Shown here piece by piece: positions 4,958 through 31,601 of a stretch of DNA of 32,000 bases. Made by a program: the position numbers and the translations under genes. Numbering within the stretch: the stretch's first letter is position 1; every line of letters begins with the position of its first letter. The notes beneath the pieces were generated by a model. That model worked only from the letters and a program-made list of their open reading frames with translations. It did no database searches and was not told where the DNA came from. Source of the DNA: Bdellovibrionales bacterium (GTDB lineage Bacteria > Bdellovibrionota > Bdellovibrionia > Bdellovibrionales > UBA1609). The DNA lies in the NCBI GenBank assembly GCA_965247685.1, contig OZ252021.1:1140001-1172000 (forward strand), in the 5' to 3' direction.

Positions 4958-5970
4958 TGTGATAAAAGTTCTTGAGCGAGTCGATAACGAGGTCTAACTT
5001 TAACTAAATCTTCTAATGTTTTTTGAGCTTTGTCGTACTCTTTTAATCCATAATAGGCTTGAGCTTTAGCATATATTAAAGAGAAGGTTTCTTCTGATGA
5101 AAGAGAATTTTTTGAAAAAAGTTGGTCCACAAAAGTCAGACAGAGAAAAAATTGTTTAGATTCTAAAAGAAGCTCTAGGTAAAGCCATTTTCGATCTCCT
5201 GTATTCAGATGCTCTTTTAAAAATTCGATAGCTAAATCGTTATACCCTGTAGAAATAAGAATGATAGCCATGTCATTGATATGTTCTGGTTTTGTTTGAG
5301 CTAAGTTTTTAAAATGCTCCATTATTTTTTGAACTTGTTGTTTCATCTCTTTTTGTGAAGGTTGCATTCGATAGGAATCATAGAGATAATGGGTGTTGGT
5401 CGTTTTATATTCATTGAGAGTGTCTATAGCTCGCTTTCTTTCATATTCTTTTTTTAATTTTTGAAAAAATAGATTCTTACTATCCATTTTTAAAAGCTGA
5501 TCAATGATTTGTTTTTCTTTTTTAAGTAACTTTTGAGAATGAGCAATTTGAAGTTCTTTTTCTAGATCCAATTGAAGATTCTCGTGATTTTGATAATAAT
5601 TTTTTAGATGAGTATTTTGTAATTCTAGTAATTGCTCATCTTCTTTTATACATGAAGATCCAAATAAATACATCCAATCATCTTCGGATGAGTGAGAAAT
5701 AAAACTTTCTATCATTTCTGACTGCATTTCTGTTTGATATTTATTGATGATGAAAAAAAAATAATACCAAGAAATGTGTTCTTCTTTTCTTAATTGTTGA
5801 GCTAAGGATTGGACTAGTGTTTTGTAAAGTCCGACAGAAACCAAAAACTGATAATATGCATGATAATCTTGAAAATTGTTCAACTGTGATTCTAATTTTT
5901 TTATGATCTCTTTGATGCCAAGACCTTGCTTGGAGAGTTGGACAATAGTTTTATCTAGCTGTGTACTCAT
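4933..5970 (-). CDS. Hypothetical helical-repeat protein with a TPR-like C-terminus
   Basis: 345-aa ORF. The C-terminal AQAYYGLKEYDKAQKTLEDLVKVRP resembles a TPR unit. It overlaps the tamB-like start by 25 nt, so it probably belongs to the same operon. Confidence 0.5.
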   Translation of the reverse strand: MSTQLDKTIVQLSKQGLGIKEIIKKLESQLNNFQDYHAYYQFLVSVGLYKTLVQSLAQQLRKEEHISWYYFFFIINKYQTEMQSEMIESFISHSSEDDWMYLFGSSCIKEDEQLLELQNTHLKNYYQNHENLQLDLEKELQIAHSQKLLKKEKQIIDQLLKMDSKNLFFQKLKKEYERKRAIDTLNEYKTTNTHYLYDSYRMQPSQKEMKQQVQKIMEHFKNLAQTKPEHINDMAIILISTGYNDLAIEFLKEHLNTGDRKWLYLELLLESKQFFLCLTFVDQLFSKNSLSSEETFSLIYAKAQAYYGLKEYDKAQKTLEDLVKVRPRYRLAQELLSQWKIRNHL

Positions 5971-7832: not shown

Positions 7833-9461
7833 ATGAAAATCAGTTTATCTTTATTATTTGTTTTTACATTGGCCTTAAGTTCATGTCAGGGGCTTTTAAA
7901 TGAGAATAATCTAGGCTCACTTGGATCTCCTCATACTTTTTCTGATTTGACACCACTTTATTGTTCTAACAGGGTTTCATCTTTTCATGATACAAAAGTA
8001 TTGTTTGTTATTGATAAAACTTTCAATAACAGAAGAGTAGACCCAAAAGGACTTCAAATAGAAAATATAAAAAATCTAGTTCAAAATAATAAAGAAAACA
8101 TTTATTATGGCGTTCTTGCTTTTTCAAAGGGGAAGGTATTGAGTCCACTGTCTACTTATAATGTTCCTATTTTTACCTCTGATCGTGAACAAGTCATTCA
8201 AGCTTTATCTCATTTAGAAAAACAAAAAAATGCAGGAAGAGTGAACTACTCTCAGCTTTTTAAATCTATAAAGAAGGCTTTAGATTATGATGTTCGTATG
8301 AATGGAAAAACAGTCATCGATTATCATGTACTATTTGTTTCCGGAGATTCTTTAAAAGCTTCAGAAAAAGAAAAAGAATTTTTTGCCCACCAGCTAAGTG
8401 AAATGAGCACAAATTCACCAATCAATAATGTTTATGTTCACTCTTTTTATTATGGTGAAAATAAAGAGAGTTCTTCTACGAAGGGCATAGTGGGCGAAAT
8501 TTTTAGAAAAGGAACGAATATTACACTACAAGCCTATCTCATTGCTCAGGGTGTATGGATTCCGGTTTCTAGAGTCTTTGATCAACCTTCTGAAGAAGAA
8601 GAGCCAGAAGATAATCAACATGTAGAGTTTTTAAAATCTATTTCTTCATCAGGCCAATATATCGATCAAAAAGAATTTTCAGAGTGGAATTTTAAATGGA
8701 CTAAACCTTGGAAAATTAAGCATTTTATGGTTTACAACGTGAATGCTTCAGAGTGTTTAGATGGAGTGATGGGACTTGATTCTGATCGAGATGGATTGTG
8801 TGATATGGACGAAATTTCTATGGAAGGTTTTAATCCTCAGAGTCGATTTAGTTTTAAAGATGGTTATAGTGATGCTTTTCATTTTTTAGCATTATCTAAG
8901 AGTTTCATATTGCCAGACTGCACAGATAAATTGGATTTGGATCATGACTTGCTGACTCATTGTGAGGAGCAATATATTAATTCTATTGAAAGTTCTTTTC
9001 CTCCTCTTCAAGTGGATAATCCAGATTCTGACGAGGATGGAGTGATTGATGGAGTAGAAACTCTTCTATTTTTAAGGACTCAGTTTTTAGCGGCCCGGGA
9101 TCCTCATAATATTTCAAACAGTGAAGTTAATATCAAAGAACAAGTGGCTTTAACTCATCCACATAATGATCAGTTGCAATACGAAACAGAGCTCATTGCT
9201 CTCAAAGGCGATCAATCTAGTTGTTATGCGTTAAAGCAAGAAATTATGCCTGTTTATTCTGAAAATGACGACTATGAATCAGCAGGAAGTTACGAAAATT
9301 TGATTTTAGTTTACTTTTTAAGAGAGCAGCAAAACTCAAACAAGCGTATTTATCAATTTAAGTATGAAAAAGTACAATCTGAGGAGTCCTTTACCACTCA
9401 GCCTTTTTATTCTTCAGTGCAGGATGACCAGCTGAAGCATTATTCTTTTTCCAGTCGCTGA
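7833..9461 (+). CDS. Hypothetical lipoprotein with a possible vWA-like N-terminal region and thrombospondin-type-3-like Ca-binding repeats
   Basis: Lipobox LALSSC. VLFVIDKTFNN resembles a degenerate MIDAS strand. DSDRDGLCDMDE and DSDEDGVIDGVE fit DxDxDGxxDxxD/E. A GAAGGA SD precedes the ATG. Confidence 0.55.
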   Translation: MKISLSLLFVFTLALSSCQGLLNENNLGSLGSPHTFSDLTPLYCSNRVSSFHDTKVLFVIDKTFNNRRVDPKGLQIENIKNLVQNNKENIYYGVLAFSKGKVLSPLSTYNVPIFTSDREQVIQALSHLEKQKNAGRVNYSQLFKSIKKALDYDVRMNGKTVIDYHVLFVSGDSLKASEKEKEFFAHQLSEMSTNSPINNVYVHSFYYGENKESSSTKGIVGEIFRKGTNITLQAYLIAQGVWIPVSRVFDQPSEEEEPEDNQHVEFLKSISSSGQYIDQKEFSEWNFKWTKPWKIKHFMVYNVNASECLDGVMGLDSDRDGLCDMDEISMEGFNPQSRFSFKDGYSDAFHFLALSKSFILPDCTDKLDLDHDLLTHCEEQYINSIESSFPPLQVDNPDSDEDGVIDGVETLLFLRTQFLAARDPHNISNSEVNIKEQVALTHPHNDQLQYETELIALKGDQSSCYALKQEIMPVYSENDDYESAGSYENLILVYFLREQQNSNKRIYQFKYEKVQSEESFTTQPFYSSVQDDQLKHYSFSSR

Positions 9462-9561
9462 GCTCAAAACTCAAAAAAATGGAGCTGATGGGTTGTGATT
9501 ATTTCAAAAATAATAATACTTTACATTGACCATCTAATGATCTACTTTTAATCTCTATAAT

Positions 9562-9888
9562 ATGGACTTCATGGGTTTACACATGGCTTTAGAAACTCAA
9601 TTATCTTCAAAAGTATATGATATTCAAATTAGCGGCTGTTCGCTGAAGATCAAAAGTGATCAAGATACAGGAAAAGTAAAGCACCTTATTCAAATGGTTG
9701 AAGAGAAGGTGCAAGAATCTTTGAAAAACAACAGCAGTGCTTCTGTTCAAAAAGCATTGATTTTATCCTGTCTCAATTTTGCAGAAGATCACCATACTTT
9801 GAAGGAAAATGTATTAAAAGAGCTTTCTTATATGGAGTGCAAATTGCAATCCATTGCCTCCCAGTTGAAGTCTAAACAGTCTTTATAA
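9562..9888 (+). CDS. zapA: Cell division protein ZapA-like
   Basis: About 100-aa protein. YDIQISGCSLKIKSD is followed by a helical region and LILSCLNFAEDHHTLKE, a ZapA-like pattern. It lies directly upstream of a 5-formyl-THF cyclo-ligase gene, as in the E. coli zapA-ssrS-ygfA locus. The true start may be the ATG at 9574 or 9583. Confidence 0.6.
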   Translation: MDFMGLHMALETQLSSKVYDIQISGCSLKIKSDQDTGKVKHLIQMVEEKVQESLKNNSSASVQKALILSCLNFAEDHHTLKENVLKELSYMECKLQSIASQLKSKQSL

Positions 9889-9922
9889 TTTTTTAATTAT
9901 AAAGACTATTAAGGAGTTCATA

Positions 9923-10519
9923 ATGGAGCGGCAAAAGTCGGTTTTAAGAAATCAATTTAATAAAAACATTCAACAATTTGTTCAAAAATATTCCACAAAA
10001 TTTTTATCTCAAAAAATTTTACAGTTATTAGATGCTTTGAACTGGAATTCTTTTCAAACGGTGGCTGTCTATGCTCCTCTTTTAACTGAAGTCCCTTTAA
10101 CTCCTTTAGTTCATAAATACCCTCACATTTCGTGGGTATATCCTCGTCTTTTTAAAGATAAAAAATTTGTTTTTGTACGGACTCAAAAAGAAACCCTATT
10201 TAAAATATCTTATAAAAGTTTTCAAGAGCCAGAAAGTATGGATATTTGCCCTATTCGTGATATCGATCTTTTCTTGGTGTCAGGTCTATCTTTTGATCGT
10301 CAGATGAGGAGATTGGGTCGTGGTTTAGGTTTTTATGATCATGTTTTAGCTCAAGCTTCAAATGCTGTAAAAGTGGGAGTGTGCTGGAGTGTGCAAGTCA
10401 GTAATGAATCTTTACCACAAGAATCACATGATCAACTTATGGATATTTTAGTGACAGAGAATTGGCTTCTTTATTCTCAAAATTTTTTGAAACAAACAAT
10501 AAATAAGAAAGTGAGTTAA
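9923..10519 (+). CDS. 5-formyltetrahydrofolate cyclo-ligase
   Basis: GLSFDRQMRRLGRGLGFYDHVL matches the family signature (G-x-AFD-x-G-x-RLG-x-G-x-G-YYD). An AAGGAG SD lies 6 nt upstream. Confidence 0.85.
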   Translation: MERQKSVLRNQFNKNIQQFVQKYSTKFLSQKILQLLDALNWNSFQTVAVYAPLLTEVPLTPLVHKYPHISWVYPRLFKDKKFVFVRTQKETLFKISYKSFQEPESMDICPIRDIDLFLVSGLSFDRQMRRLGRGLGFYDHVLAQASNAVKVGVCWSVQVSNESLPQESHDQLMDILVTENWLLYSQNFLKQTINKKVS

Positions 10520-10523
10520 AATT

Positions 10524-12104
10524 ATGAATTACAATACTGTTGAACTTCTATTAGCAATATTTACAGGAGGCTTAGTAGGGAGTGGTACTCTTATCATTTA
10601 TCAATTAATACTCAGTCAGCAACGAAAAAGGAAACTCGACCGAGAAGTGAACCGTGTTATTAATAAAGCTCAATCTGAAGCTACACGTATTAAGAAAACA
10701 GCTGAAATTCAAGTTAAAGATATGGAAATTAAAGCTCAAAAAAAGATTGAGCAAGATTATGTAGAGGAAAAAAAGAAAGTTGAAATTGCAAGTGAAAAGT
10801 TACAACTTATGCAAACTAAGCAAGAAGATGAATATAATAGGCAAATAGAAATTTCAGAAGAACAGCAAAAAGAAATTGAGAAGCAAAAGAAAAAATTAGA
10901 AGAGCGTCAAGTCGAGCTTAAATCGTTGGAAGAAGAACAAGCAGAAGGTTTGAAGCAGCTCAATAGTCAATTGGAAAAAATTGCTCAGCTTAGTCAAAAA
11001 CAGGCTGAACAAGAACTTAAGGAGCTTTTGATGGAAGAAGTGAGATTAAAGTTAGTTCCTCAAATTCAAAAGATGGAAGAAGAAATGAGACAAGAAAGCG
11101 AAATAAAAGCAAAAAATATTTTAGCTCGATCTATTGCAAGGCAGGCCTCTGTAGTTACAACAGAACAAACTATCACTTCTATTCCTGTGGAAGAAGATGA
11201 TGTGAAAGGTAAAATTATCGGGAGAGAGGGACGAAACATTCGAGCTTTAGAGCAGGCCTGTGGTGTGGATGTTTTGATTGAAGAAGGTCAGGATGCTATT
11301 ATCCTATCATGTTTTGACCCTGTCAGGAGATCGATTGCTGAAACAGCGATTCATCGATTAATCAAAGATGGCCGTGTTCATCCTGTTCGTATTGAAGAAG
11401 TTGTAGAAAAAGTAAAAAGTGAAATTTTTAATCAAATGAAAGAGGATGGAGAGCAGGCCTGTCTTGATCTGAATATTCATGATGTGCATCCAGAAATTTT
11501 GCAAACATTAGGAGGGTTAAAATTCAAAACTCTCAAAGGACAAAATGCATTAAAAACTTCTGTTGATTTAGCTTTCTTAGCAGGACACGTTATGTCTGAA
11601 ATCGATGAAGATGAACTTTCTGCTCGAAGAGCAGCTTTATTTCACTGCATTGGCTTGAATGTAGATCATAGAGTAAAGGGCAATTACGCTCAAGTGGGAG
11701 CAGATTTTATAAAAAAATATCGTGAGAAACCTCATGTGATCCAAGCAGTGAGATGTCATAATTCTAACATTCCTGCAGAAACCGTACTTGATCATGTGCT
11801 ACAAACCAGTTTCAATCTTTATCAATCTTTGCCAAGTACAAAAAAGTTCAATGTTGAAGGGTTTATTAATCGTATGAAACACATTGAATCCATTGCCAAT
11901 AGTTTTTCAGGTGTGATTCGAAGTTATGCTATTCGTTCAGGGAAAGAGGTTCGTGTCATAGTCGACAGCTCTAAAGTCACCGATGATCAAACAATTATGT
12001 TATGTTCTGATATTGTCAAAAAACTAGAAAAAGAACTGGATATGTCTTATTCTTTAAAAGTGAGTGTTATTCGAGAATCTAGAATTGTAGAACATGCAAG
12101 ATGA
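10524..12104 (+). CDS. rny: RNase Y homologue (TM anchor, coiled coil, KH domain, degenerate HD domain)
   Basis: N-terminal TM (LLLAIFTGGLVGSGTLIIYQLIL) and a long E/K/Q coiled coil. KH motif GKIIGREGRNIRALE. The C-terminal region is collinear with the RNase Y HD domain and tail (RSGKEVRVIV ... SVIRESRIVEHAR), but the HD-motif residues are substituted (see findings). Confidence 0.85.
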   Translation: MNYNTVELLLAIFTGGLVGSGTLIIYQLILSQQRKRKLDREVNRVINKAQSEATRIKKTAEIQVKDMEIKAQKKIEQDYVEEKKKVEIASEKLQLMQTKQEDEYNRQIEISEEQQKEIEKQKKKLEERQVELKSLEEEQAEGLKQLNSQLEKIAQLSQKQAEQELKELLMEEVRLKLVPQIQKMEEEMRQESEIKAKNILARSIARQASVVTTEQTITSIPVEEDDVKGKIIGREGRNIRALEQACGVDVLIEEGQDAIILSCFDPVRRSIAETAIHRLIKDGRVHPVRIEEVVEKVKSEIFNQMKEDGEQACLDLNIHDVHPEILQTLGGLKFKTLKGQNALKTSVDLAFLAGHVMSEIDEDELSARRAALFHCIGLNVDHRVKGNYAQVGADFIKKYREKPHVIQAVRCHNSNIPAETVLDHVLQTSFNLYQSLPSTKKFNVEGFINRMKHIESIANSFSGVIRSYAIRSGKEVRVIVDSSKVTDDQTIMLCSDIVKKLEKELDMSYSLKVSVIRESRIVEHAR

Positions 12105-13319: not shown

Positions 13320-13750
13320 AAAATATGAAAAATAAAATTAAATTTATACCTCAAAATGTAGAACTTGAAATATCTTCTGAAAAAAATGTGATGGAGATAG
13401 CTCATGAGAATGGCATTCTCATTCAATCGAGCTGCAAAGGACAGGCTAATTGTGGTGAATGTCGAGTCATCGTTGCAGAAGGAGAAAGCCAAATGTTACC
13501 GCCTACTTCACATGAACTTTCTCTTATTGGGCAGGCTTATCATATTGATCAAAGAAGGCTTTCTTGTCAGCTTTATTGTTTTGGAAATGTAACCATTGAT
13601 GTCAGTGAACATTTGAAGAAAGAAGGGGATGCTGTCACTCAAAAGTTCTTGAAAAGAATTAAAAAAGATCATCGGCAAAAAATCCATTCTATTAGAGATA
13701 ATCTTATTGAAGTGGATAAAGAAATAAAAGAATGGACAAAAAAGTCTTGA
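13316..13750 (+). CDS. [2Fe-2S] ferredoxin, adrenodoxin/Fdx-like, with a charged C-terminal extension
   Basis: Cys pattern C-x5-C-x2-C (SCKGQANCGEC) followed by RRLSCQ. ATGA overlap with the tyrS stop suggests translational coupling. Confidence 0.75.
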   Translation: MKNMKNKIKFIPQNVELEISSEKNVMEIAHENGILIQSSCKGQANCGECRVIVAEGESQMLPPTSHELSLIGQAYHIDQRRLSCQLYCFGNVTIDVSEHLKKEGDAVTQKFLKRIKKDHRQKIHSIRDNLIEVDKEIKEWTKKS

Positions 13751-13764
13751 ATTTAAAACGAAGG

Positions 13765-14967
13765 CTAAGGCAAATTTTCTTGAGAGAGTTCTTTAGTAAT
13801 ATTTTTTTCTAAAGCTTCAATAGTTCCTCCGCCAATTTCTAATAACTTCGAATCCCGCCAAAGTCTTTCCACAACATAATCACCCACATAACCATAGCCG
13901 CCCATCACTTGTATCGCTCGATCTGCAATTTGCTTTCCAATTTGTGATGCCAAAAGTTTTGTTGCATCTGTCTCTATTCTTTTTATAGTTTTTTCTGAAC
14001 TGAGTCGATGAGCTACATAATAGACATAAGAGCGGCAAGATTGTAATTCTGCATAGCTTTGAGCCAAGTGTTTTTGAATTTGCCCAAAGTGTCGGATAGG
14101 TTTTCCAAAAGCTGTTCTTTGAGTTGCATATTTATTCATTTCATTTAAAGCTCTTCGAGCAATACCGACACTCATAGCTGCTAATGTCAGTCTTTCAATT
14201 TCTAAATTTTTCATCATTGGACTCAAAGCTTTTCCTGCTTCTCCAATAAGATGAGACTCCGGTACTCGACAATTATCAAATACCAATTCAGATGTATAAG
14301 AAGCTCTCATACCTGTTTTATTTTTAATTAACTGACCTGCTTTAAAGCCTGAAAAATTTTTCTCAACCATAAATAGACATATACCTGGACGATCTTCAAG
14401 CCTTGTATAAACAAGGCAAGCGTCGACTAGATCTCCCTGATCTGTAGTGACACCATTGGTAATCCACATTTTACGACCATTAAGAATATAGAAGCCTTTG
14501 TTGTCATACCGAGCTTTTGTTTGCATGGATAAAACATCTGTACCGGCGTCGGCCTCTGACATAGCCATAGCACCCACCCATTCACCAGAGCAGAGTCGAG
14601 GAAGCCACATCTTTTTTTGAATTTCATTTCCATGCTCATAAAGGTTATGAGCGCATAAAACGGCATGAGCTAAATAAGCTAGACAAAAGCCAGGATCAGA
14701 ATAGCTTAATTCTTCATGGACTAAGCAGGAAGCTGTCGCATCTAAGCCGACACCACCTAATGACTCTTCTTTAATAGTTATTCCTAATAGACCTAAATTA
14801 CCGGCTTTTTTGAATAAATTTAAATTAAACTGCTCATTTTTATCATGTTCTAAAGCTTGAGGCTCGACCTCGCTTTTTACAAACTTTTTAACCATTTCTC
14901 GCAAGAGTTGATGTTCAGGAGTGGGGTTTAATAAATTAACGTTATCCATGAGATCGTTTCTTTTCAA
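13765..14967 (-). CDS. Acyl-CoA dehydrogenase (isovaleryl-CoA dehydrogenase-like)
   Basis: Full-length ACAD pattern: GAMAMSEADAGTDV, KMWITNG and GGYGYVGDYVVERLWRDSKLLEIGGGT (catalytic Glu region). The track start is TTG; the ATG at 14949 (MDNVN...) is an alternative start. Confidence 0.9.
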   Translation of the reverse strand: MKRNDLMDNVNLLNPTPEHQLLREMVKKFVKSEVEPQALEHDKNEQFNLNLFKKAGNLGLLGITIKEESLGGVGLDATASCLVHEELSYSDPGFCLAYLAHAVLCAHNLYEHGNEIQKKMWLPRLCSGEWVGAMAMSEADAGTDVLSMQTKARYDNKGFYILNGRKMWITNGVTTDQGDLVDACLVYTRLEDRPGICLFMVEKNFSGFKAGQLIKNKTGMRASYTSELVFDNCRVPESHLIGEAGKALSPMMKNLEIERLTLAAMSVGIARRALNEMNKYATQRTAFGKPIRHFGQIQKHLAQSYAELQSCRSYVYYVAHRLSSEKTIKRIETDATKLLASQIGKQIADRAIQVMGGYGYVGDYVVERLWRDSKLLEIGGGTIEALEKNITKELSQENLP

Positions 14968-20292: not shown

Positions 20293-20922
20293 TTATTTTC
20301 TAATTTGTATTTCTTGAGCGGTTTGAATCCATAAATCGAATACTTTCTTTAATGAAATTTGAGGATGATAATCAGAAACTTTATCATGAGGGCGATGAGT
20401 AGTTCCACAGCTGCGGATATAAGAGAATAGCTCCATATCGTTACAAATATTTAAAGATAAACCATGTTGACTAATACCTTGAGTGACATGAATACCGAAG
20501 AATGCTATTTTTCCTTTAGAAGTAAAGAGTCCTGCCTGATCTTCTTCTTTATGGGTTTCAATATTCAGTTTTTTTAAAGTACCTTGAGTGACTGTTTCTA
20601 CAAATTGAATAAAGTCTCGTACTCTCATTTTATTTTTTTTAATATCAATAATAGGATAAATCACCAACTGGCCAAGAGAATGAAGTGTTGCTTGTCCTCC
20701 TCTTTGTATATTAATAATAGGAATATTTTTTTTCTGATATTCTTTTTCATTGAGCAGTAAATCTTCTTTTGTTCCTCGAAGACCTAAAGTGATTGTTGTA
20801 GGGCATTCAAAGCCTAAAGCAAAATTTTCAGGCTTTTGCAGACAAGAATTTTTAAGCTCCTCTTGAGTTTGAAGACTTTCTAAATAAGGGATTTTATTTT
20901 TCCATAGAGGGGTAAAATGCAT
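20293..20922 (-). CDS. lipB: Octanoyltransferase (lipoyl(octanoyl) transferase)
   Basis: RGGQATLHSLGQLVIYP, GKIAFFGIHV and HGLSLN motifs. The start overlaps the stop of the upstream gene (TAATG). Confidence 0.88.
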   Translation of the reverse strand: MHFTPLWKNKIPYLESLQTQEELKNSCLQKPENFALGFECPTTITLGLRGTKEDLLLNEKEYQKKNIPIINIQRGGQATLHSLGQLVIYPIIDIKKNKMRVRDFIQFVETVTQGTLKKLNIETHKEEDQAGLFTSKGKIAFFGIHVTQGISQHGLSLNICNDMELFSYIRSCGTTHRPHDKVSDYHPQISLKKVFDLWIQTAQEIQIRK

Positions 20923-22067
20923 TATTTTTTCTTAGTTTGAATGATAATATAATTTTCAGATTTTAAATAAGGAGAGAATTTAAAGTCTAAAAATTTCCAA
21001 TTCTTAATCTTATTCAGAACTTCTTGATCTGTGCCTTCTACGTCTGCCTTATATCTCTCTTTTTGTGCAGAGATATAGTGAGTTTTTAAGTTTTTAATGT
21101 TTGGAATATCTTTAATTAAGGCTTTTCGAATATGATCTCTCTCTAAATATGTTAAATTTCCAGAAATCTCTATATTAAATAATTGTGTGGATAAAGATCC
21201 TGTTTCGTATATATCTTTAATTTGCAGAATAAAATTTTTAGCCCAATAACTAGAACGTTGACTAAGTCGTGACCAAGATTTTTTTTGCAACTCAATTCTA
21301 GATTTATAAGAATCTAATTTTCTAAGATGTGGTGTACTATATAAAGTTAAATTCCATACAGATTGATACTGTTGATCAGAAAGTGAAGTGATTTTAATTT
21401 TACCTAGTATGAAGAATTGAGCCTCAAAATGTTGAGCAATTTTTTGAGCTTTTTTAGGATTGATATAATAAGCATTGAGCTCTTTAGGAAGATGATGAGC
21501 ATATTGACTGAATAAAGGATCGATTAAGAAGAAACCATTTTGTATAAATAATTTTTGAATAGGGGAGTAAAAATCTTGAATGTGAACCGAAGTGGACTGC
21601 TCAGAAGCACTTGGAGTCCACCATGCATTTTTATTGTCTTCTTCGATAAATTGAATCAATGGAAGAATTCTATGAGCTCCCTGATTGGCATAATAGATAC
21701 CTTCTTGAATTAAAACATCTTTCAATGTGTCTTTAGAATATTTAATGAAGATTGAATATATGAATTTTTGAACTTCATTGTCAGAATCTTGATTCTGTTC
21801 TTGCTCCTTTTTATCCAGTATTTTTGTTAATAAAATAAAATTTTTGGTTTTAGGTAAAATCTTTTTCTCAATAGAAGTTTTTATTTTTTCTGTATTAGCT
21901 TCTCCTAGAATTTCTGTTATAAGTGTTTGAGTGAACTCATCTTCAGCTTCTTTTAAAATAGATTGAACCTGAAAGCTTTCACTCACAAGCTCAATAGTTG
22001 TTTCTTCTATTTGAGCCTGAGCCCATCCTAAAAAGAAGAGTCCAAAAAGAAAAGAAATATGTTTCAT
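20922..22067 (-). CDS. Hypothetical secreted protein
   Basis: 381-aa ORF with signal peptide MKHISFLFGLFFLGWAQAQ. No motif recognised. Translationally coupled to lipB. Confidence 0.5.
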   Translation of the reverse strand: MKHISFLFGLFFLGWAQAQIEETTIELVSESFQVQSILKEAEDEFTQTLITEILGEANTEKIKTSIEKKILPKTKNFILLTKILDKKEQEQNQDSDNEVQKFIYSIFIKYSKDTLKDVLIQEGIYYANQGAHRILPLIQFIEEDNKNAWWTPSASEQSTSVHIQDFYSPIQKLFIQNGFFLIDPLFSQYAHHLPKELNAYYINPKKAQKIAQHFEAQFFILGKIKITSLSDQQYQSVWNLTLYSTPHLRKLDSYKSRIELQKKSWSRLSQRSSYWAKNFILQIKDIYETGSLSTQLFNIEISGNLTYLERDHIRKALIKDIPNIKNLKTHYISAQKERYKADVEGTDQEVLNKIKNWKFLDFKFSPYLKSENYIIIQTKKK

Positions 22068-23853: not shown

Positions 23854-24159
23854 TTACCAACTCGCCTTTGTGACTCCAGGTAAGAATCCTTGGTGTGCCA
23901 TTTCTCGAACGGCAATACGGGACAGTCCAAAATGTCTCAGATGACCTCGTGGACGTCCTGTCATCTGGCAGCGACGAACAACTCGAGTGAGGCATGTGGA
24001 CTTAGGTAATTTTTGAAGCTTTAAAAAAGCGTCTTGCCGTTCGTCATCAGAAAGTTTCGTATTAATAGATGTTTTTCTAAGCTGGCGTCGAATACTCAAA
24101 AATTTCATAGATTTTTGAAGCTTTTTATCATTTTTAACTATAGAGCTTTTTTTTGCCAC
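23854..24159 (-). CDS. rpsN: 30S ribosomal protein S14 (long, 101-aa form)
   Basis: Collinear with E. coli-type S14: [43 protein letters not shown] start. It is not embedded in an spc-type ribosomal operon. Confidence 0.9.
24134..24152. repeat. 19-bp direct repeat, copy 1 (inside rpsN codons 2-8)
   Basis: ttaactatagagctttttt is identical to 24508-24526. Confidence 0.85.
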
Positions 24160-24650: not shown

Positions 24651-25940
24651 ATGAAGAAAATTATTAAAGTTTTAATTATCTTTTCTATTTTATTTTCACA
24701 AAATCACATCTTTGCTAAATCTTTTTACGATGAATCTGTTCCTCTGTCAGAAGTCAAAAAACATGCTTATGATTCACTTATGTTAAGAAAAAGAATATCT
24801 GATGGTGATGATCGTCATTGGGGAGGCGACATACCTGCAAGTTTTACTCGGAAAGGGTACAAATATGACCTTCCGTTATTGTCTTCACCAAGAGTTGTTG
24901 ATGTAAATGAATTTGATGTTTTAGGATTTTTTGAAGTTTGGGATACCGAGTTTGATCTTCATTTTGACAAAGATTTATATAGAAAGATCGATTTTGAAAA
25001 ATTATATATATTATCCAAGCAAGGAGATCACACATCCCGAGATTTTTTATTGGGTAGTTTTTCTTTAGAAATTGTTGCCCATCTAATGAACAATGATGTG
25101 AGATTTAATAATGGATATAAAAATCCATTGCCTAAATTTAGTGAATACAATCATTTTGTCGTTGAAATTGTTCGACATGTATATAATAATTGGATTACAT
25201 CTACAACATATTCATACTTTCTTAGAAGATTTTATATACATTTGTATCAAAGTAATATGTTAGGGTCAGACACCAGCGAATTATTAGAAAAATTTGACAC
25301 TAATTGTTGTGATCAGCAGCATTGGTTTGAAGGAAATACTCAAGGATTAAAGTCAATTTCTTCTATGGATGCAGATAACGGCTGGATAAACCCTTTTGAC
25401 TGGTTTGGTTTTCATGAACAAGAAACAATAGACGAAGAAATTATTATACAGGATATAGTAAAGAAAATTCATATTTTACATGAGAATAAAGATAGTGTGC
25501 TCCGAGAGCTTAAATGGAAGGAAAGTACAGCTGCTTGGGAAGCAATGGCAGGAGTCGCAGTTATTGCAACAGCTATTGCTGGAGGAATTATTGTTGGAGG
25601 AATTTTTGTTCCAGAAATTATAGCAGGAATAAGTTCACTTCCAATTGGCCTAACAACCACTTGGAGCGAACTTTTTGGGTTTTATGTAACAGGACAAGGT
25701 GTTACTATTGCTATGAACCCAGGAGTTGTTATCGGTCTTGTTAGTTTATGTGCGACAGGTGTCGCTATGGTAATGAATGAATGCAAGAGTCAAAAAAGAG
25801 AAAAACAAGAAGAAGAGAAGCACAAAGAAACAAAAAAATGGCAAAAAGAAGTGAAAGAGGGGCAAAGACAAGCAAGCGAGGAGCGAAGGCAAATACAAGA
25901 AAATCAAAAAAAACATGAACAAAAGCATTATAAGAAGTAA
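24651..25940 (+). CDS. Orphan secreted/membrane protein: signal peptide, about 270-aa unknown domain, Gly-zipper hydrophobic region, K/E/Q-rich tail
   Basis: Signal peptide MKKIIKVLIIFSILFSQNHIFAKS. Hydrophobic Gly/Ala-rich block AMAGVAVIATAIAGGIIVGGIFVPEIIAGISS ... GVVIGLVSLCATGVAMVM (about 25530-25785). The charged tail WQKEVKEGQRQASEERRQIQENQKKHEQKHYKK is shared with the downstream small ORFs. Confidence 0.6.
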   Translation: MKKIIKVLIIFSILFSQNHIFAKSFYDESVPLSEVKKHAYDSLMLRKRISDGDDRHWGGDIPASFTRKGYKYDLPLLSSPRVVDVNEFDVLGFFEVWDTEFDLHFDKDLYRKIDFEKLYILSKQGDHTSRDFLLGSFSLEIVAHLMNNDVRFNNGYKNPLPKFSEYNHFVVEIVRHVYNNWITSTTYSYFLRRFYIHLYQSNMLGSDTSELLEKFDTNCCDQQHWFEGNTQGLKSISSMDADNGWINPFDWFGFHEQETIDEEIIIQDIVKKIHILHENKDSVLRELKWKESTAAWEAMAGVAVIATAIAGGIIVGGIFVPEIIAGISSLPIGLTTTWSELFGFYVTGQGVTIAMNPGVVIGLVSLCATGVAMVMNECKSQKREKQEEEKHKETKKWQKEVKEGQRQASEERRQIQENQKKHEQKHYKK

Positions 25941-26194
25941 TGAGAAGTGGGAAAATGTTAAAGAAAGATAAAAAAAATCAAGTGTTATATGGCTTCTGTA
26001 TTTTTATTGTTTCAATTTATTTTATTCATTCTTATTATATTTTTCGAAGTAATGAAAATCGATCAGCAAAGATGCATAAAGAAGTAATGGAGTGGCAAAA
26101 AGAAGTGAAAGAGGGGCAAAGACAAGCAAGCGAGGAGCGAAGACAAATACTAGAAAATCAAAAAAAACATGAACAAAAGCATCATAAGAAGTAA
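25940..26194 (+). CDS. Small single-pass membrane protein, paralogue 1
   Basis: 84-aa ORF. Lys-rich N-terminus, TM VLYGFCIFIVSIYFIHSYYIF, then a charged helical tail. TAATG overlap with the upstream stop. An internal ATG at 25955 (MLKKDKKNQ) matches the start of paralogue 3. Confidence 0.55.
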   Translation: MRSGKMLKKDKKNQVLYGFCIFIVSIYFIHSYYIFRSNENRSAKMHKEVMEWQKEVKEGQRQASEERRQILENQKKHEQKHHKK

Positions 26195-26430
26195 TGAGAA
26201 GTGGAAAAATGTTAAAGAAAGATAAAAAAAATCAAGTGTTATATGGCTTCTGTATTTTTATTGTTTCAATTTATTTTATTCATTCTTATTATATTTTTCG
26301 AAGTAATGAAAATCGATCAGCAGAGATGCATAAAGAAGTAATGGAGTGGCAAAAAGAAGCAAAAGAGGAGCGAAGACAAATACTAAAAAATCAAAAAAAT
26401 CATGAGCAAATGCATCGTAAAATTAATTAA
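26194..26430 (+). CDS. Small single-pass membrane protein, paralogue 2
   Basis: 78 aa, near-identical to paralogue 1 through the TM. The tail lacks GQRQASE and diverges at the end. TAATG overlap with paralogue 1. Confidence 0.55.
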   Translation: MRSGKMLKKDKKNQVLYGFCIFIVSIYFIHSYYIFRSNENRSAEMHKEVMEWQKEAKEERRQILKNQKNHEQMHRKIN

Positions 26431-26439
26431 GAGATAAAA

Positions 26440-26673
26440 ATGTTAAAGAAAGATAAAATAAATCAAATATTGCTTAGTTTATTAATTTTTATTATGTCAG
26501 TGTATGTTGTTTATTCTTATAATGTTCGATTAACAACAGAGAGGCAGATAGATGAGCATTTGAGACAAATAAAAGAGGAGCAAAAAAAGGGAAGTGAGGA
26601 TCTCAAACAAATAAAAGAGGAGCTGCAAAAGAGAAATAAGGATCTCAAACAAATAAGAGAAAATCAAAAATAA
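26440..26673 (+). CDS. Small single-pass membrane protein, divergent paralogue 3
   Basis: MLKKDKINQILLSLLIFIMSVYVVYSY has the same architecture. Its tail contains its own internal repeat (DLKQIKEE / DLKQIREN). Confidence 0.5.
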   Translation: MLKKDKINQILLSLLIFIMSVYVVYSYNVRLTTERQIDEHLRQIKEEQKKGSEDLKQIKEELQKRNKDLKQIRENQK

Positions 26674-27001
26674 ATAATAGAAAATAAAAATCATAAAATT
26701 AATTTCTTATAAAGTTTTTATTAATTAGTTTTTGACTTTCCTTTAAAAAATAAAGAATTGATAAATCCTTAAAATACCTCCAATAAGAAATCCTTTTTCA
26801 GGAAGGGCAGAATAAGAGAATACCTTCTCCCACAAACATATAATCACAATGTAACATAATATAACTTATCAGATCATTAGGTATATATCAGATTTAGCTC
26901 AAGTTTTAAGGGTTTAGGTTATTAGTGAGTTTTGTGTATCATATAAATCACGAAATTTAAAAAAGGACTTATAATTTGAATACAATAGAATCCATTCCAT
27001 T

Positions 27002-30000
27002 TTATAGAAAATCACCCAACAGATCTATTTGAATTATAGGAAGAGCATTAGAATCTAAATCATTAATATATTGAGAAGGCATTAAATAATCTGTTACTAT
27101 ACATCCTTCAATAGAGTCGATAGCTGGAGTGAATCCAACAATATGATAAATGGATTGGTAATTATTTTTTATCCAATTTAGACGATTAGTATGTTTTTTG
27201 CGAATTTTTTTCATTCTTTCTAAACTGTTAAATATTTCATTAAGATTTCTAGATAATTGAAGTCTTTTGGATTCAATGATTTTAACACGATTATCTTTCC
27301 ATGCTAATACATCTATGTCTCCTAAACTTTTCGAAGCTCCTAATGTAGACATTTTTAAATTTAATTTCACTTTCCAATGTGATTCTTGTACTTTATCAGC
27401 AACCTTTTGATTAAATTGCTCTCCCTTTTGCTTATTAATATTTCCACACAAACTTTTCATTTCATTTGATTTAAAAAAATGTATTGGAAAATTCCCCTCT
27501 TCTATCTGATCAAATAAGTAACATATAGATCTCTCAAAATTCCCCATTCCATAAAAAACATTGCCATCATTAGATCTTTTTGTTGCTAATAAAGGTCTAA
27601 CATTCAAGGCAAGTCTACGGTTATATTTAGAAGGTAATATATCTCTGTTTTTAAAACCTACAGGGGGGATGTTCCAGTCATCACGAGAAAAAATAACAAA
27701 TGAGTTCATAAAATGTTGAATAGTTTCACATGATATCCCTTCCTCTTTACATTTTTTCTTAATTTCTCCAATTGTTGTTTTAACAACTACACTAGATTTT
27801 TCATTAGCTATTTGAAATAAAAGCTTATAAATTTGTGCCATATCCTTTGTGGAAATTCCAAATTCAGCCTTGAAAGCGTTCTCTATTCTAGAAAATTCAA
27901 ATTCAGTTTTGAAAGCGCTCTCTATTTCATTTCTTGATTGTGTATTATTATAAAATTCTTTATAATTTTGACTTTGATCTTTTTGTTGAGAATACCGTAT
28001 CCCTTGCATAAAGGGTAATACTCCAGTATACAGAAACTCACGATCAATAGAGTACAGACCATCTCTTTCCCTTTTAATTTCTTTTTTACTGAAATTATAT
28101 TCTATTAAATCAGAATCAAATGATACTTCTAATAAAAACAAAGACTCTTCTAACAGTTCTTCCATATCCCATTCAGATAAAATTTTCCCCCCATCTTCTA
28201 AGCATTCACATATTGACATTTCTAGTAGAATTTGAATAGATTTTTTTATATTATCTCTATTTCTACTTTTTTCTTCTGCCACATTTTTACTTTCTTCAGC
28301 GTAGGACAGAAAAGCTCTCATTATCCTCCTCCAGAAAGAGTCTTCATGAATTTGAGACTCATATATTTCCATTAGCTTATGTATCACATCCGATTTATTA
28401 AATAATTTTAGCTTTGATTTAATATGTGAACGAATATATTCAAATAAATCATGTAAGAATTTTTGAACTTCTTGCTCGATTAAAGGAAAATTATAATTAT
28501 TGATTTGAAAATCTTGTAAAATTTTAAATCTTACAAAGTGATTATCAGCAATTGTCCTTTCAAAATTGAAGTTAATATTTTTGTTTTGAACAAATTTAAA
28601 AACACTTCCATCATCTGGAAACAAATGCAAAATTTTATTATCTGATTGAACTATTTTATTCACAATAGAATTGACTCGACTATCCGATGATTTTTCTTTT
28701 TTCTCACATAAACTTATGAGTGATGAAACTATATGCTTAGCAATCTCTCTCTCCCCTTTATTTATAGTAGTGTTGAAGTTAAGAAAAAAATTATATGGAA
28801 ATTTAATTTCTGCTCTATTTTTCGAAAAATCAAAAATAGTTTCTGTCTTCTCAATTTGTAGATGTTCATCAAATACTTTTTGATCTAATTTAATATTCTC
28901 AAAATTTAAACAAATCTCCAGTGTGATGTGAGACTGATCTTTCAAAATATTTTCAATTTCATGGACTATTTTGTAGTATAATACATCTAATCCTGAAGAA
29001 AGGAGCGTACATGCAATTTTCATAAAATTTGAAGCACATTTAATAGATAGCCATTTAGGAGTATTATTTTCTACAGAAATTCTTAATATATTCCTATAGA
29101 ATAAGGGATATAAATCTGTGCAGATTGGTAATTTTCTAAATTCTCTGTGATAAGAAGATGAAATAGACTTTAAGACAGGAAAATACTTTCCATCTATGTC
29201 TTTAGTGCAATGAATATCTAAGAGCTTTCTAATATCCTTATTTAATGGAAAAACAATATCAGGACAACATATGAATAAAGATTGATTATGATCCATGATT
29301 AGAGTACAGTTTGTGTGCCACGAGCAATATAAAGCATAATCTCCATTTATGGAAGAAAACCCCCTTCCTTGATTTTCAAAATATTTTTTTTGATCTAAAA
29401 ATTTTAAGTAATTTTTTAATGACCACTTTGTCTTGTCAATTGGAGCACCTAGTTTAAGAAAATCTTGTGTTTTAATGCATGAGTAGCACCATGAATTATC
29501 TGCTAAATCTGGTATCTCTTCAATTATCGTATTTAAACCGTCGCAACTAGGTAGGATTAAAACTGTTCCTGAAACAAAATCATTTTGAGATTTACAAAAA
29601 TCTCTCATTTTTTTTATTTCATTTGAAATTTTATCAGTATTATTAATCAAAGGTTCTTGTTGTACAGATATATGAAATAATAGTATGCAAAGATATTTAT
29701 CAGAATCGTACTTTAATATCCAAGACTTAACAAGTGAAGAAGATCGTTTATCTTTTTGCTCATTAGGGTTTCTTACTACATTAAAAGCACGAAGAGGACT
29801 GAGTAGGCCTTCAATCATATTAATTTCATTTTCAAAAAAGATTTCATCAAATTTGTAAGTATAGTTAGTTTTTTTAAATTCAGAAATTATATAATGTCGT
29901 ATTGCTGCTCCAATTGCATTAGGCAAAGCTACAATAATTTTACCCTCAATGCAGATAAAAGGCTTTTTTTTCAATTCAGAGCATCCATGGTTTTGATTAT

Positions 30001-30601
30001 CTGATGTTTTTATATCATTTTTTGTAAAGAAAAAAGGCTTAAGAAGGTCGATATGAATGTTTAAATCAAATAATTCATTCGCATCAAATACTACTCTGTT
30101 AATCATTTCATGTGATAATTTTGATATTTTGATATTTTGTTTTGGAGATGTTTCTTCTGAGTAATCCCATCTTTTTAAACCAGATCTTTGGACAACTTCA
30201 TCACTTAATCTAAGTAAGTTAAAAATATGTAGTAATAACTCTTTATAATTTTCATTTTTTAAGAACAAAGATTCTATAGTTTTTTGAACATAAAAATCAT
30301 TTGATTCCCATAATCCTTCGAAAATTCTAAAACTTCCTTGAAGAGTTATAATATTTGTTACAAATACATCTTCTATAGGATCTTCCTGGGATTTATATTG
30401 ATCTAAATCTTTGTTCAGAAAAATTTCAATTTCTTCCTTTTCTGGAGAAATTGAAGATTTTTTACAATTAGATACTACAAGATGAATAAGCTTTTCTATG
30501 CGATAGGAATTAGAAGCTAAAGAAGGTATAGTAAGTAGAGATGAAATTTTTGAAAGAGTTAAGAATAAATCATATTTTTTAAGTTTTTCATCTATAGACA
30601 T
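27002..30601 (-). CDS. Orphan 1199-aa protein with a C-terminal NERD/PD-(D/E)xK-like nuclease motif
   Basis: Uninterrupted 3.6-kb ORF. Residues about 1060-1112, KGEQFNQKVADKV ... LGDIDVLAWKDNRVKIIESKRL, fit the E...D...ExK restriction-fold core. I could find no Walker A (GxxxxGK[ST]), helicase or methyltransferase motif. Confidence 0.8.
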   Translation of the reverse strand: MSIDEKLKKYDLFLTLSKISSLLTIPSLASNSYRIEKLIHLVVSNCKKSSISPEKEEIEIFLNKDLDQYKSQEDPIEDVFVTNIITLQGSFRIFEGLWESNDFYVQKTIESLFLKNENYKELLLHIFNLLRLSDEVVQRSGLKRWDYSEETSPKQNIKISKLSHEMINRVVFDANELFDLNIHIDLLKPFFFTKNDIKTSDNQNHGCSELKKKPFICIEGKIIVALPNAIGAAIRHYIISEFKKTNYTYKFDEIFFENEINMIEGLLSPLRAFNVVRNPNEQKDKRSSSLVKSWILKYDSDKYLCILLFHISVQQEPLINNTDKISNEIKKMRDFCKSQNDFVSGTVLILPSCDGLNTIIEEIPDLADNSWCYSCIKTQDFLKLGAPIDKTKWSLKNYLKFLDQKKYFENQGRGFSSINGDYALYCSWHTNCTLIMDHNQSLFICCPDIVFPLNKDIRKLLDIHCTKDIDGKYFPVLKSISSSYHREFRKLPICTDLYPLFYRNILRISVENNTPKWLSIKCASNFMKIACTLLSSGLDVLYYKIVHEIENILKDQSHITLEICLNFENIKLDQKVFDEHLQIEKTETIFDFSKNRAEIKFPYNFFLNFNTTINKGEREIAKHIVSSLISLCEKKEKSSDSRVNSIVNKIVQSDNKILHLFPDDGSVFKFVQNKNINFNFERTIADNHFVRFKILQDFQINNYNFPLIEQEVQKFLHDLFEYIRSHIKSKLKLFNKSDVIHKLMEIYESQIHEDSFWRRIMRAFLSYAEESKNVAEEKSRNRDNIKKSIQILLEMSICECLEDGGKILSEWDMEELLEESLFLLEVSFDSDLIEYNFSKKEIKRERDGLYSIDREFLYTGVLPFMQGIRYSQQKDQSQNYKEFYNNTQSRNEIESAFKTEFEFSRIENAFKAEFGISTKDMAQIYKLLFQIANEKSSVVVKTTIGEIKKKCKEEGISCETIQHFMNSFVIFSRDDWNIPPVGFKNRDILPSKYNRRLALNVRPLLATKRSNDGNVFYGMGNFERSICYLFDQIEEGNFPIHFFKSNEMKSLCGNINKQKGEQFNQKVADKVQESHWKVKLNLKMSTLGASKSLGDIDVLAWKDNRVKIIESKRLQLSRNLNEIFNSLERMKKIRKKHTNRLNWIKNNYQSIYHIVGFTPAIDSIEGCIVTDYLMPSQYINDLDSNALPIIQIDLLGDFL
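27861..27938 (-). repeat. In-frame 39-bp tandem duplication inside the 1199-aa ORF
   Basis: aattcagccttgaaagcgttctctattc versus aattcagttttgaaagcgctctctattt. These encode IESAFKTEFEFSR / IENAFKAEFGIST. Confidence 0.7.
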
Positions 30602-30652: not shown

Positions 30653-31108
30653 CTATAGACATTTTCCCATCCAATTGGTGGCTACTGTGTGTCCTTCTAG
30701 ATTCATAATTCTTGATTGAACAAATGTTTTTTGTTTTGTATCGATAAGAAATACCACTGTTGCAGAAGTACCCCCACTAAGAAGCCAATAGGTACCATTA
30801 TTTTCATTCAATTTCATCAGGTCAATTTTGTTTGGTAAAAGATTATTTTCTGGAAGCATTTTGGGAGTTTTAGATTTTAAATCTGTAAATATAGTGGGGT
30901 ATTTTGATTTTTCCTTTTTGGCAGAGATTTTGATTTTTTTATTATCTGGTGAGTAGTGAGAGCTAGTTATGTGGGTAAGATTACAAGTTATAGAGTTACT
31001 TGTATCCGGGTATGGTTTTTTTGTTGAAACTAGTTTACCAATAGCTTGATTAACAAAAGATAATTGCGAAAAAACAATTATAAATAAAAACGTTAGTATA
31101 AATTTCAT
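30653..31108 (-). CDS. Small exported hypothetical protein
   Basis: Signal peptide MKFILTFLFIIVFSQLSFVNQAIG. I prefer the ATG at 31108 over the track's GTG at 31117 because an AAGGTGG SD sits 5 nt upstream of it. Its stop lies 51 bp upstream of the 1199-aa ORF, same strand. Confidence 0.6.
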   Translation of the reverse strand: MKFILTFLFIIVFSQLSFVNQAIGKLVSTKKPYPDTSNSITCNLTHITSSHYSPDNKKIKISAKKEKSKYPTIFTDLKSKTPKMLPENNLLPNKIDLMKLNENNGTYWLLSGGTSATVVFLIDTKQKTFVQSRIMNLEGHTVATNWMGKCL

Positions 31109-31601
31109 AAAAACCACCTTCTTTATTAAGAATTTCTTTTAATTGATGTTATTAATTAACTTAATTATAATTAATATTCAAGTTTTTTAAAATTAGCTAT
31201 CATATATGTATCAATTCGTTACATTTTATATCCAATAGAAGAACTTTTTATAAAAAGATAGATATTTTATTCAAAACAGGTATGTTCGAATTTAAAAATT
31301 TTAAATTACATAGCGGATTGTAACCCTATATCTATGAATTTATGAATAATTTCTTTAATTTCATCTAGTCCTCTTAGTTGATTTAAGTAAATCCTCTTAA
31401 TCGTTTTTTGTTAAAAAGAAGGAAAATACTTTAAAGAAAATTAACAAAATATAATAACTTGGACAGGTGAAAATAATAAAAATGTTTTAAAACTAAACGA
31501 TAATGGTAAAAGTTCCTAAAATATGGTTATTGATGCAACTTAGGGTTATCAATAAACAAAATTATCCAAGATCCACTTAAAATCGAAATTCCCGATTTCG
31601 A

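Follow-up and report, generated by a model that had tools for sequence, protein, structure and literature searches.

Colicins lack a signal peptide and are plasmid-borne with lysis genes, and their immunity proteins have three to four transmembrane (TM) segments. In Proteus mirabilis, IdsD is delivered by a type VI secretion system (T6SS) and IdsE is a two-TM protein. In pathogens, the Mycoplasma Vlp/Vsa and Neisseria pilE/pilS proteins have an antigenic role, as surface lipoproteins or pilins. As for the Cdz bacteriocins, CdzC and CdzD are peptides of ~85 aa with extended GxxxGxxxG zippers and adjacent type I secretion system (T1SS) export, and CdzI has three TM segments (PMC5380434). Here we compare with these systems a four-gene module found in a 32,000-nt stretch of bacterial DNA (the window, to which all coordinates refer). 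It contains a gene for a predicted exported, membrane-anchored protein of 429 aa (the large gene, 24651-25940, + strand), the founding member of its family, and three downstream genes for small single-pass membrane proteins (small1 to small3). We read it as a self-contained, lineage-restricted, polymorphic membrane module with tail-matched small partners, which appears to resemble polymorphic effector/immunity loci. The module of the window is labelled W, and the other loci of the family L001, L002, L003, L084/L085, L086, L087, L088 and L089.

By analogy, the closest known kind would be a polymorphic effector/immunity locus with membrane-active tips, such as the ionophores of contact-dependent inhibition (CDI) or Cdz. 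With the CDI ionophore pair CdiA-CT/CdiI the module shares a conserved N-terminal body, an abrupt change to a variable C-terminal part of membrane-inserting type, and a high non-synonymous divergence (PMC11630599). The adjoining downstream small membrane genes, which vary together with this part, may also correspond to the strain-specific partners and orphan-like copies of CDI. In contrast to CDI, it has no CdiB/CdiA, Rhs, T6SS or type VII secretion system (T7SS) trafficking domain or adjoining machinery, and only a Sec-type signal. Its hydrophobic part is a two-segment hairpin, whereas the CDI ionophore is a five-helix bundle (PMC11630599), and its partners are single-pass proteins that carry the large protein's own tail sequence. 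Gly-rich hydrophobic segments and a small membrane protein encoded alongside are also found in the Cdz system (PMC5380434), but the module protein is 429 aa long with a Sec signal, the zipper is absent in seven of eight family members, there is no T1SS and the partners are single-pass.

Colicins are similar in domain order, with a targeting-like part at the N-terminus and a hydrophobic helical hairpin at the C-terminus, and in an adjoining membrane-protein gene. However, no ten-helix colicin pore domain was found in the module by Pfam, or by Foldseek against PDB with the model of the N-terminal domain only, the small proteins have one TM each, and there is no plasmid match and no lysis gene in the locus tables. 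IdsD and IdsE are likewise two membrane proteins in which strain-specific variable regions decide binding, with polymorphism in or near the membrane segments, but the Ids pair has no tandem array, shared tail or sequence relation to the module. With Vlp/Vsa and pilE/pilS the module has in common tandem paralogs, a conserved N-terminal membrane-targeting part, and charged, repeat-built C-termini that vary in length and type by recombination. The module differs from them in that its products are no lipoproteins, its host is diderm, and its array goes with a large conserved partner. Because of the Sec-only export, the lack of linked machinery, and single-pass partners that share the variable sequence, we do not file the module in any known family.

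The four open reading frames (ORFs) of the module all lie on the + strand, and their coordinates in the initial annotation, made from the sequence alone, agree with the ORF list. They are real, conserved genes that make one self-contained module. The large gene ends in a charged K/E/Q/R tail (25785-25937; 51 aa, 10% hydrophobic, net +7). It is followed by small1 (25940-26194, 84 aa from the ATG at 25940), which is an annotated gene in NCBI/ENA, then by small2 (26194-26430, 78 aa) and by small3 (26440-26673, 77 aa), which has the same N-terminus/TM family and a divergent tail. TAATG stop/start overlaps had been described along the array. These are present at the first two junctions (25936-25940 and 26190-26194), but small2 and small3 are separated by a 9-nt gap. 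The lengths of 78-84 aa given at the time fit the ORF spans, but the true start of small1 and of small2 is probably their second ATG (25955 and 26209; MLKKDK...), which would make them 79 and 73 aa long. This is suggested by the MLKKDK N-terminus, common to small3 and the L086 homolog, and by a GAGA-type purine run 8-12 nt upstream. The Lys-rich N-terminus, single TM and charged tail first noted in the small proteins were also found here, with one hydrophobic segment in each by Kyte-Doolittle, between the N-terminus and the tail. The DNA of the small3 N-terminus/TM is 78% identical to that of small1 and small2. Its tail has a 42-nt (14-aa) internal tandem repeat at 26553-26678, EDLKQIKEELQKRN, which is absent from the tails of small1 and small2.

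The tails are common to large and small proteins because of a tandem repeat in the DNA. Tandem Repeats Finder gives a period of 254 nt at 25839-26379 (strand not assigned; 2.1 copies, 96% matches, score 1019), and a repeat search pairs 25800-26053 with 26054-26307 at 93%, plus a degenerate third unit reaching ~26526. One repeat unit is composed of the tail of one ORF, the stop/start junction and the N-terminus/TM of the next ORF. The last ~42 codons of the large gene are repeated in small1 and small2. Its tail is identical to small1 at 124 of 141 nt (score 107, with a cross-locus background of 14-25), and small1 is identical to small2 at 223 of 255 nt, the small2 tail having an in-frame deletion and a diverged end. 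The possibility that the small proteins are copies of the large protein's second TM was rejected, as only the tail is common. With this tandem repeat, and the same arrangement in eight other loci, the pattern is far beyond chance.

Tails are shared within most of the other loci as well. Six loci (W, L001, L002, L003, L086 and L089) have a large gene whose final 80-190 nt match the 3' end of the small gene beside it at 88-100% identity, with within-locus local scores of 81-151 over the same background. Between loci the tails are strongly diverged, with only short motifs persisting. The view that tails are unrelated between loci was corrected, as a terminal H(H)xSRPRxQxEP-like motif recurs in L002, L086 and L088, and the tails are therefore homologous but fast-evolving. 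The number of 7-aa repeats varies among paralogs, with EQRRQT present two to four times in L001 and AEERDRQ one to three times in L086. Across the family, tails are 8-25% hydrophobic. Heptad periodicity is significant for W small3 (p=0.001), W small2 (p=0.007) and the large tail of L003 (<0.0005). The DRHRQE, EQRRQT and AEERDRQ tail types have no heptad periodicity and look like highly charged single helices, so the proposal that all tails are canonical coiled coils was rejected.

A switched tail is seen in L003 and L089. These are orthologous loci from the same sample, with synteny through DegP, two M16 peptidases and SSF, flanks ~80% identical, and three against seven small genes. The large gene and small1 have a QINNIQ tail in L003 and a DRHRQE tail in L089, and the opposite type sits in the remaining small genes of each locus. 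No alignment was found between the two large-gene tails (score 11), and their next-best matches are the small genes of the other locus (46-62). Furthermore, the L089 tails are mosaics of shuffled modules. Since one tandem repeat spans the tail, the junction and the next N-terminus, recombination in the array maintains the match between the tails of the large protein and the small protein next to it, and the same process changes the small-gene copy number (two to seven) and can swap the tail type. The co-variation of the small genes with the large C-terminus is direct sequence sharing via the tandem repeat, and not complementary co-evolution.

In every locus with context, nine in all, the large gene is directly followed by small single-pass genes. 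There are three in W, L001, L003, L086 and L084/L085, two in L002 and seven in L089; the L086 contig has 2x coverage and frameshifts. Intact loci have two to seven small genes, and the decayed L087 and L088 have one each. The large protein of L084/L085 is a distant relative (E 2e-8). The small proteins also detect each other across loci, W small2 matching L086 small3 with E 4e-15, L002 with 3e-6 and L001 with 6e-5. Their N-terminus/TM has an omega (ratio of non-synonymous to synonymous change) of 0.2-0.38 (L003 small1 vs L089 small2-5; p~0.04), which is modest evidence that the small proteins are translated and constrained.

These observations bear on two other explanations of the small ORFs. 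The first is that they were left behind, without function, when the 3' end of the large gene was recently duplicated in tandem. This would account for small1 and small2 being 93-96% identical DNA repeats that include the large gene's tail, but it does not fit with small single-pass ORFs following the large gene in nine of nine loci, the fully diverged L084 included, with all copies being intact, even the seven of L089, with the detection across loci (E down to 4e-15), or with the low omega of the N-terminus/TM. We regard it as extremely improbable. In the second, the small genes are mainly a donor library for tail-cassette variation, from which recombination alters the tail length or type on the large protein, comparable to antigenic variation by silent cassettes or to surface proteins whose repeats vary in length. 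The switch of the large tail type between orthologous loci, with the alternative type present in the small genes, points in this direction, together with the mosaic L089 tails and the repeat numbers that differ among paralogs. Yet the small genes have their own starts, purine-rich upstream runs and a conserved N-terminus/TM, as expected from expressed proteins and not from silent cassettes. In addition, cassette replacement would lack a guide, as no homology is present in the large gene 5' of the tail, and a tail in the inner membrane of a diderm would be no obvious antigen, which leaves this explanation very unlikely, if less so than the first.

In terms of genomic location, the contexts differ per locus, and include a ribosomal-protein operon, gcvH/T, and leucine-rich repeat (LRR) genes with DegP, among others. 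An all-vs-all BLAST of the flanking ORFs found nothing common across loci except the module, and no extra partner gene. Between W and L086, which are 72% identical, homology begins only 6 nt upstream of the ATG (W 24645). The contigs carrying the module are chromosomal (0.6-1.3 Mb). One contig of 1.16 Mb has two decayed copies of the large gene, L087 (5001-5555) and L088 (5001-5499). In one, an in-frame internal deletion joins the DGDD motif to GLTNPFDWFG, with most of the N-terminal domain lost. The other (L088) is N-terminally truncated and abuts metG. A small single-pass ORF is kept downstream of each. Both the in-frame deletion (P0009) and the truncation at metG are atypical of indel errors. 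Judging from this genome with two decayed copies and from the W/L086 homology being confined to the module, the module is dispensable and mobile within genomes.

Some other features were seen around the loci. An LRR_5 array upstream of the module, with three copies in L003 (7895-9814) and six in L089 (1749-6248), is a second expanding tandem family. In L084, two tandem 54-aa two-TM paralogs (9318-9482 and 9548-9712) lie upstream, and a secreted protein of GGGGAY repeats and a helix-turn-helix-like 276-aa protein lie downstream (13657-14142). The module adjoins ribosomal genes twice, in W a stand-alone S14 (rpsN, 23854-24159, - strand) and in L001 the start of the S10/spc operon (5802 onward), which is probably a coincidence.

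We then consider selection, mostly with L003 and L089. Their eight flanking genes have a proportion of synonymous differences (pS) of 0.42-0.62, omega of 0.06-0.41 and a synonymous divergence (dS) of ~1. The large gene (420 codons) has pS 0.131, a proportion of non-synonymous differences (pN) of 0.138 and omega 1.06 (Fisher vs DegP p=9e-20). Codons 1-300 have pS 0.053, pN 0.072 and omega ~1.4, and differ from every flank tested. The large ORF is nevertheless clearly maintained: it stays open in only 5 of 5000 neutral simulations in which the 172 observed substitutions are placed at random, and all seven indels are multiples of three. The module evolves without net purifying selection while staying intact. 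For W and L086, omega is 0.38 in the N-terminal domain and 0.84 in the hairpin, the fastest-evolving structured part of the large protein.

Nucleotide identity between L003 and L089 is 68-81% in the upstream LRR gene, and 86-98% from ~170 nt before the ATG to the end of the N-terminal domain. Within the N-terminal domain itself it is 88-98%. From there on it is abruptly lower, at 69-77% in the hairpin and 57-64% in the tail. A conserved-N/variable-C boundary, as in polymorphic toxin loci, is therefore present in the one available pair. We infer a recent exchange of the N-terminal domain segment between two co-occurring lineages, plus a polymorphic block of hairpin, tail and small genes. The recent horizontal exchange would be limited to this segment (L003 ~9830-10927), given its 86-98% identity next to flanks with dS ~1.

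Another explanation is a lineage-specific structural envelope complex, in which the large protein is a scaffold and the small bitopic proteins are subunits, similar to FtsB/FtsL or PilN/PilO, and tail identity follows neutrally from gene conversion and tandem duplication. This fits the architecture being kept at great divergence (L084, P0012), the bitopic design of the small proteins (short N-terminus, TM, helical tail), the diderm hosts, with TamB in the window, and the N-terminal domain omega of 0.38 between W and L086. On the other side, the genomic position differs per lineage, also for relatives that are 72% identical, two decayed copies occur in one genome, and close relatives have three against seven small genes. 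The omega of ~1, and a synonymous divergence far below the flanks, implying recent exchange, also speak against it. So does the absence of the module from 185,579 species-representative genomes. Compared with FtsB, FtsL and DivIC, the small genes of the module are multicopy, variable in number and in variable contexts, and no Pfam or NCBIfam match to the DivIC/FtsB/FtsL or PilN/PilO families was found. We consider an envelope complex of this kind unlikely.

The large protein itself largely has the layout given in the initial annotation, with a signal peptide, a domain of ~270 aa, a Gly/Ala-rich hydrophobic part and a charged tail. The predicted Sec signal peptide (24651-24716, aa 1-22, MKKIIKVLIIFSILFSQNHIFA then KS) contains a hydrophobic segment at aa 4-22 in the Kyte-Doolittle scan. 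A candidate cleavage site, read from sequence, lies after IFA and before K, and homologs also have small residues at -3/-1 (YAFS before K, NINA before Q). The signal peptide and topology calls are a rule-based reading. The N-terminal domain (24717-25526, ~270 aa) is predicted to be all-helical from alignments and AlphaFold2. Its alignments A1 and A2 have a mean column identity of 54-65%, with clade-specific acidic/aromatic motifs (DGDDRHWGGD, VDVNEFD, EVWDTEFDLHFDK, LMNNDVRF and DGWxNPxDWFGxH). With seven sequences, the AlphaFold2 model is of moderate confidence overall, with a predicted local distance difference test (pLDDT) of 56.7 and a predicted template modelling score of 0.63, and has a helical core of pLDDT 85-90. 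A fold search with this model gave no match in PDB (Foldseek best E 4.3, template modelling score at most 0.26) or BFVD (best E 0.6), a PDB sequence search found nothing, and a sequence-profile search gave no hit at E<=10. The acidic motifs DGDDxxWGGD and DGWxNPxDWFGxH are missing in the distant members P0011 and P0012, and the residues invariant across all seven sequences are aromatic or structural, so a conserved catalytic site is unlikely.

The Gly/Ala-rich membrane hairpin (25527-25784) has hydrophobic segments at aa 296-332 and 350-378 and a beta-like loop. A hydrophobic block and two further segments had been proposed at first, but all family members have two robust C-terminal segments, not three. 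Family-wide features are a start that resembles a signal peptide, GPE[IV]xAG behind the first hydrophobic segment, the beta-like xLTxQGVxV loop, AMNP before the second segment, and a Cys pair 10-11 residues apart that closes it. The glycine zipper, on which the toxin call had been based, does not hold for the family. GxxxGxxxG is present in one of eight members and absent in the other seven, and the zero to four GxxxG motifs per protein are not aligned. With a cleaved signal and two TM segments, the tail of the large protein would be periplasmic, in agreement with small proteins of N-in topology. The two hydrophobic lobes are 17-60 aa apart in the family. A bilobed hydrophobic domain is also found in chlamydial Inc-like effectors, where it goes with a type III signal, whereas the N-terminus here resembles a cleavable Sec signal.

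The initial annotation had proposed a toxin with an immunity array, or a heteromeric complex assembled through the shared tails. In a classical antibacterial toxin, the large protein would be released or delivered, its hairpin would form pores, the small proteins would protect the producer and the extra ones would be orphan immunities. Much of the evolution is conflict-like, as such a system would have it. Conservation of the N-terminal body ends sharply where the hairpin and tail begin, the small membrane genes downstream co-vary, the ORF is maintained at an omega of ~1, and there are two to seven copies, decay and varied positions. Two co-occurring lineages of one sample each hold small genes with the other's large-tail type, a small ORF is kept in the decayed L087 and L088, and the W module adjoins a defence gene. 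Polymorphism at the interface is also known from membrane ionophore toxins and their immunities (PMC11630599).

The molecular side of the toxin proposal did not stand so well. There is no match to a toxin, bacteriocin or immunity family and no colicin-like fold (for which only the N-terminal domain model was searched), and the zipper is not conserved. A neighbourhood of secretion-system genes had been suggested as a check, and in the gene tables of the nine loci no T1SS, type V secretion system, T6SS, T7SS or lysis gene adjoins the module; the window as a whole likewise has no T1SS, T6SS or T7SS. With a Sec signal and its own TM segments, the protein should stay in the producer's inner membrane. 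The immunity proteins used for comparison are polytopic (three TM in CdzI, PMC5380434) and have no sequence in common with the toxin, but each small protein of the module spans the membrane once and is related in sequence to the large one. In addition, a shared ancestral array would account just as well for the reciprocal tail pattern. A classical toxin is a plausible but on balance rather unlikely explanation, although somewhat less so than the envelope complex. The other proposal, a heteromeric complex via shared tails, fits with tails being shared and co-varying within each locus.

As read from these loci, evolution has left the signature of a strain-specific system of interaction or conflict, either self-protection from a membrane-active protein or self/non-self recognition, and not of a housekeeping envelope complex. 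In a possible mechanism, the large protein would be exported by Sec and anchored in the cytoplasmic membrane by its C-terminal Gly/Ala-rich hairpin, followed by the charged helical tail, and the small genes would give single-pass partners with the same kind of tail. These partners may dock on the large protein at its hairpin and tail, a matching tail may determine the fit of a partner, and the additional small genes, whose tails are of other types, may be spare or non-cognate partners. That the small proteins bind the hairpin and tail, that the tail match sets specificity and that the system serves strain-specific protection or recognition is the reading we tentatively favour, with somewhat less than even confidence. 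More doubtful is a categorically different, tail-coded pairing, in which specificity would be located in an exchangeable C-terminal "address tail" and no dedicated secretion system would be needed. Here, unequal crossing-over would re-pair the effector with other partners, expand the spares and create self/non-self or toxin/immunity types.

If the tails set the pairing, this would be a compact, recombination-driven way of generating specific membrane-protein pairs, unlike the compared toxin/immunity and self-recognition systems, where complementary substitutions underlie the co-evolution of the partners. It would also offer a first way into the function of an orphan family from a barely sampled lineage with genomes of ~1.1-1.3 Mb. 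Even with a mundane function, the module is a clean natural case of concerted evolution coupling the 3' end of a gene to a downstream array.

Several points weigh against pairing by matched tails in a conflict system. In L084, the most distant locus, the small proteins do not have the large protein's tail, and are fully diverged both from it and from each other, being alike only in position and architecture. Tandem duplication and gene conversion could by themselves have made the tails identical, as a neutral side effect, and pairing via homotypic coiled coils is not general, since heptads are found only in some tails. The K/R-rich start of the large protein's tail argues for a cytoplasmic tail, which would need a third pass. 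As for selection, the analyses of selection and mosaic structure are mainly from one orthologous pair (L003 vs L089) with simple Nei-Gojobori counts, and the omega of ~1 in the N-terminal domain is indistinguishable from neutrality (p=0.63). Lastly, several contigs are low-coverage long-read assemblies, and some of the decay may be sequencing error.

The family is rare in sequence collections. Three relatives of the large protein (46%, 38% and 35% identity) are the only matches among 5.8 billion proteins. An exhaustive HMMER search of 1.84 billion representative proteins with the N-terminal domain profile found eight proteins in all, and the small-protein profile retrieves only members of these loci from the 5.8 billion. 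No relative was found in the GTDB species genomes (185,579 representatives), IMG/VR or JGI metagenomes, and tblastn gave no match in 72,556 plasmids or in phages. Alignment A3, which is broader, was too divergent for pattern scans of wider collections. The four proteins have nothing above noise in Pfam, NCBIfam, PADLOC and PHROG profiles, and no toxin, bacteriocin or defence family, in line with the first impression that none of the sequences was recognisable. Sub-threshold, composition-driven matches to VIT1 (the sole Pfam hit at E<=0.01), DUF6377, DUF3139, ZorB and PorY were dismissed; that of small3 to ZorB in PADLOC (E 0.0015) is at chance level. A promoter/terminator scan gave counts not above shuffles and no terminator, and an Rfam scan of the window found tRNA-Val only.

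The window has ~31% GC and encodes TamB, RNase Y, DnaE, GuaA, LipB, a BCCT transporter, S14, tRNA-Val and a class I tRNA synthetase of the Trp/Tyr family. TamB indicates a diderm cell. Among the 185,579 species genomes, the best DnaE matches are metagenome-assembled genomes of Bdellovibrionales, with only 46-52% identity. The source contig is 1.28 Mb long. We read the host as belonging to a deep lineage, Bdellovibrionota-like and poorly sampled, with small genomes (~1.1-1.3 Mb). The hosts are probably host- or prey-dependent.

Among the neighbouring genes, the one to the right of the module (27002-30601, - strand, 1199 aa) is distantly related, over its full length, to Upx, an anti-phage protein with two nucleases (NCBIfam E 2e-113, 380 bits with a cut-off of 1900; PADLOC 3e-102). 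Compared with the anti-phage systems of PADLOC, it is the only match, none of the four module proteins being above chance. It lies in a low-GC (23-29%) stretch at 26-32 kb. The 154-aa ORF beside it (30653-31117, - strand) has no family match. No Pfam or NCBIfam match was found for the ORFs at 4933-5970 (- strand, 345 aa), 7833-9461 (+ strand, 542 aa) and 20922-22067 (- strand, 381 aa). The 381-aa ORF has a signal-like N-terminus and shares a stop/start base with lipB.

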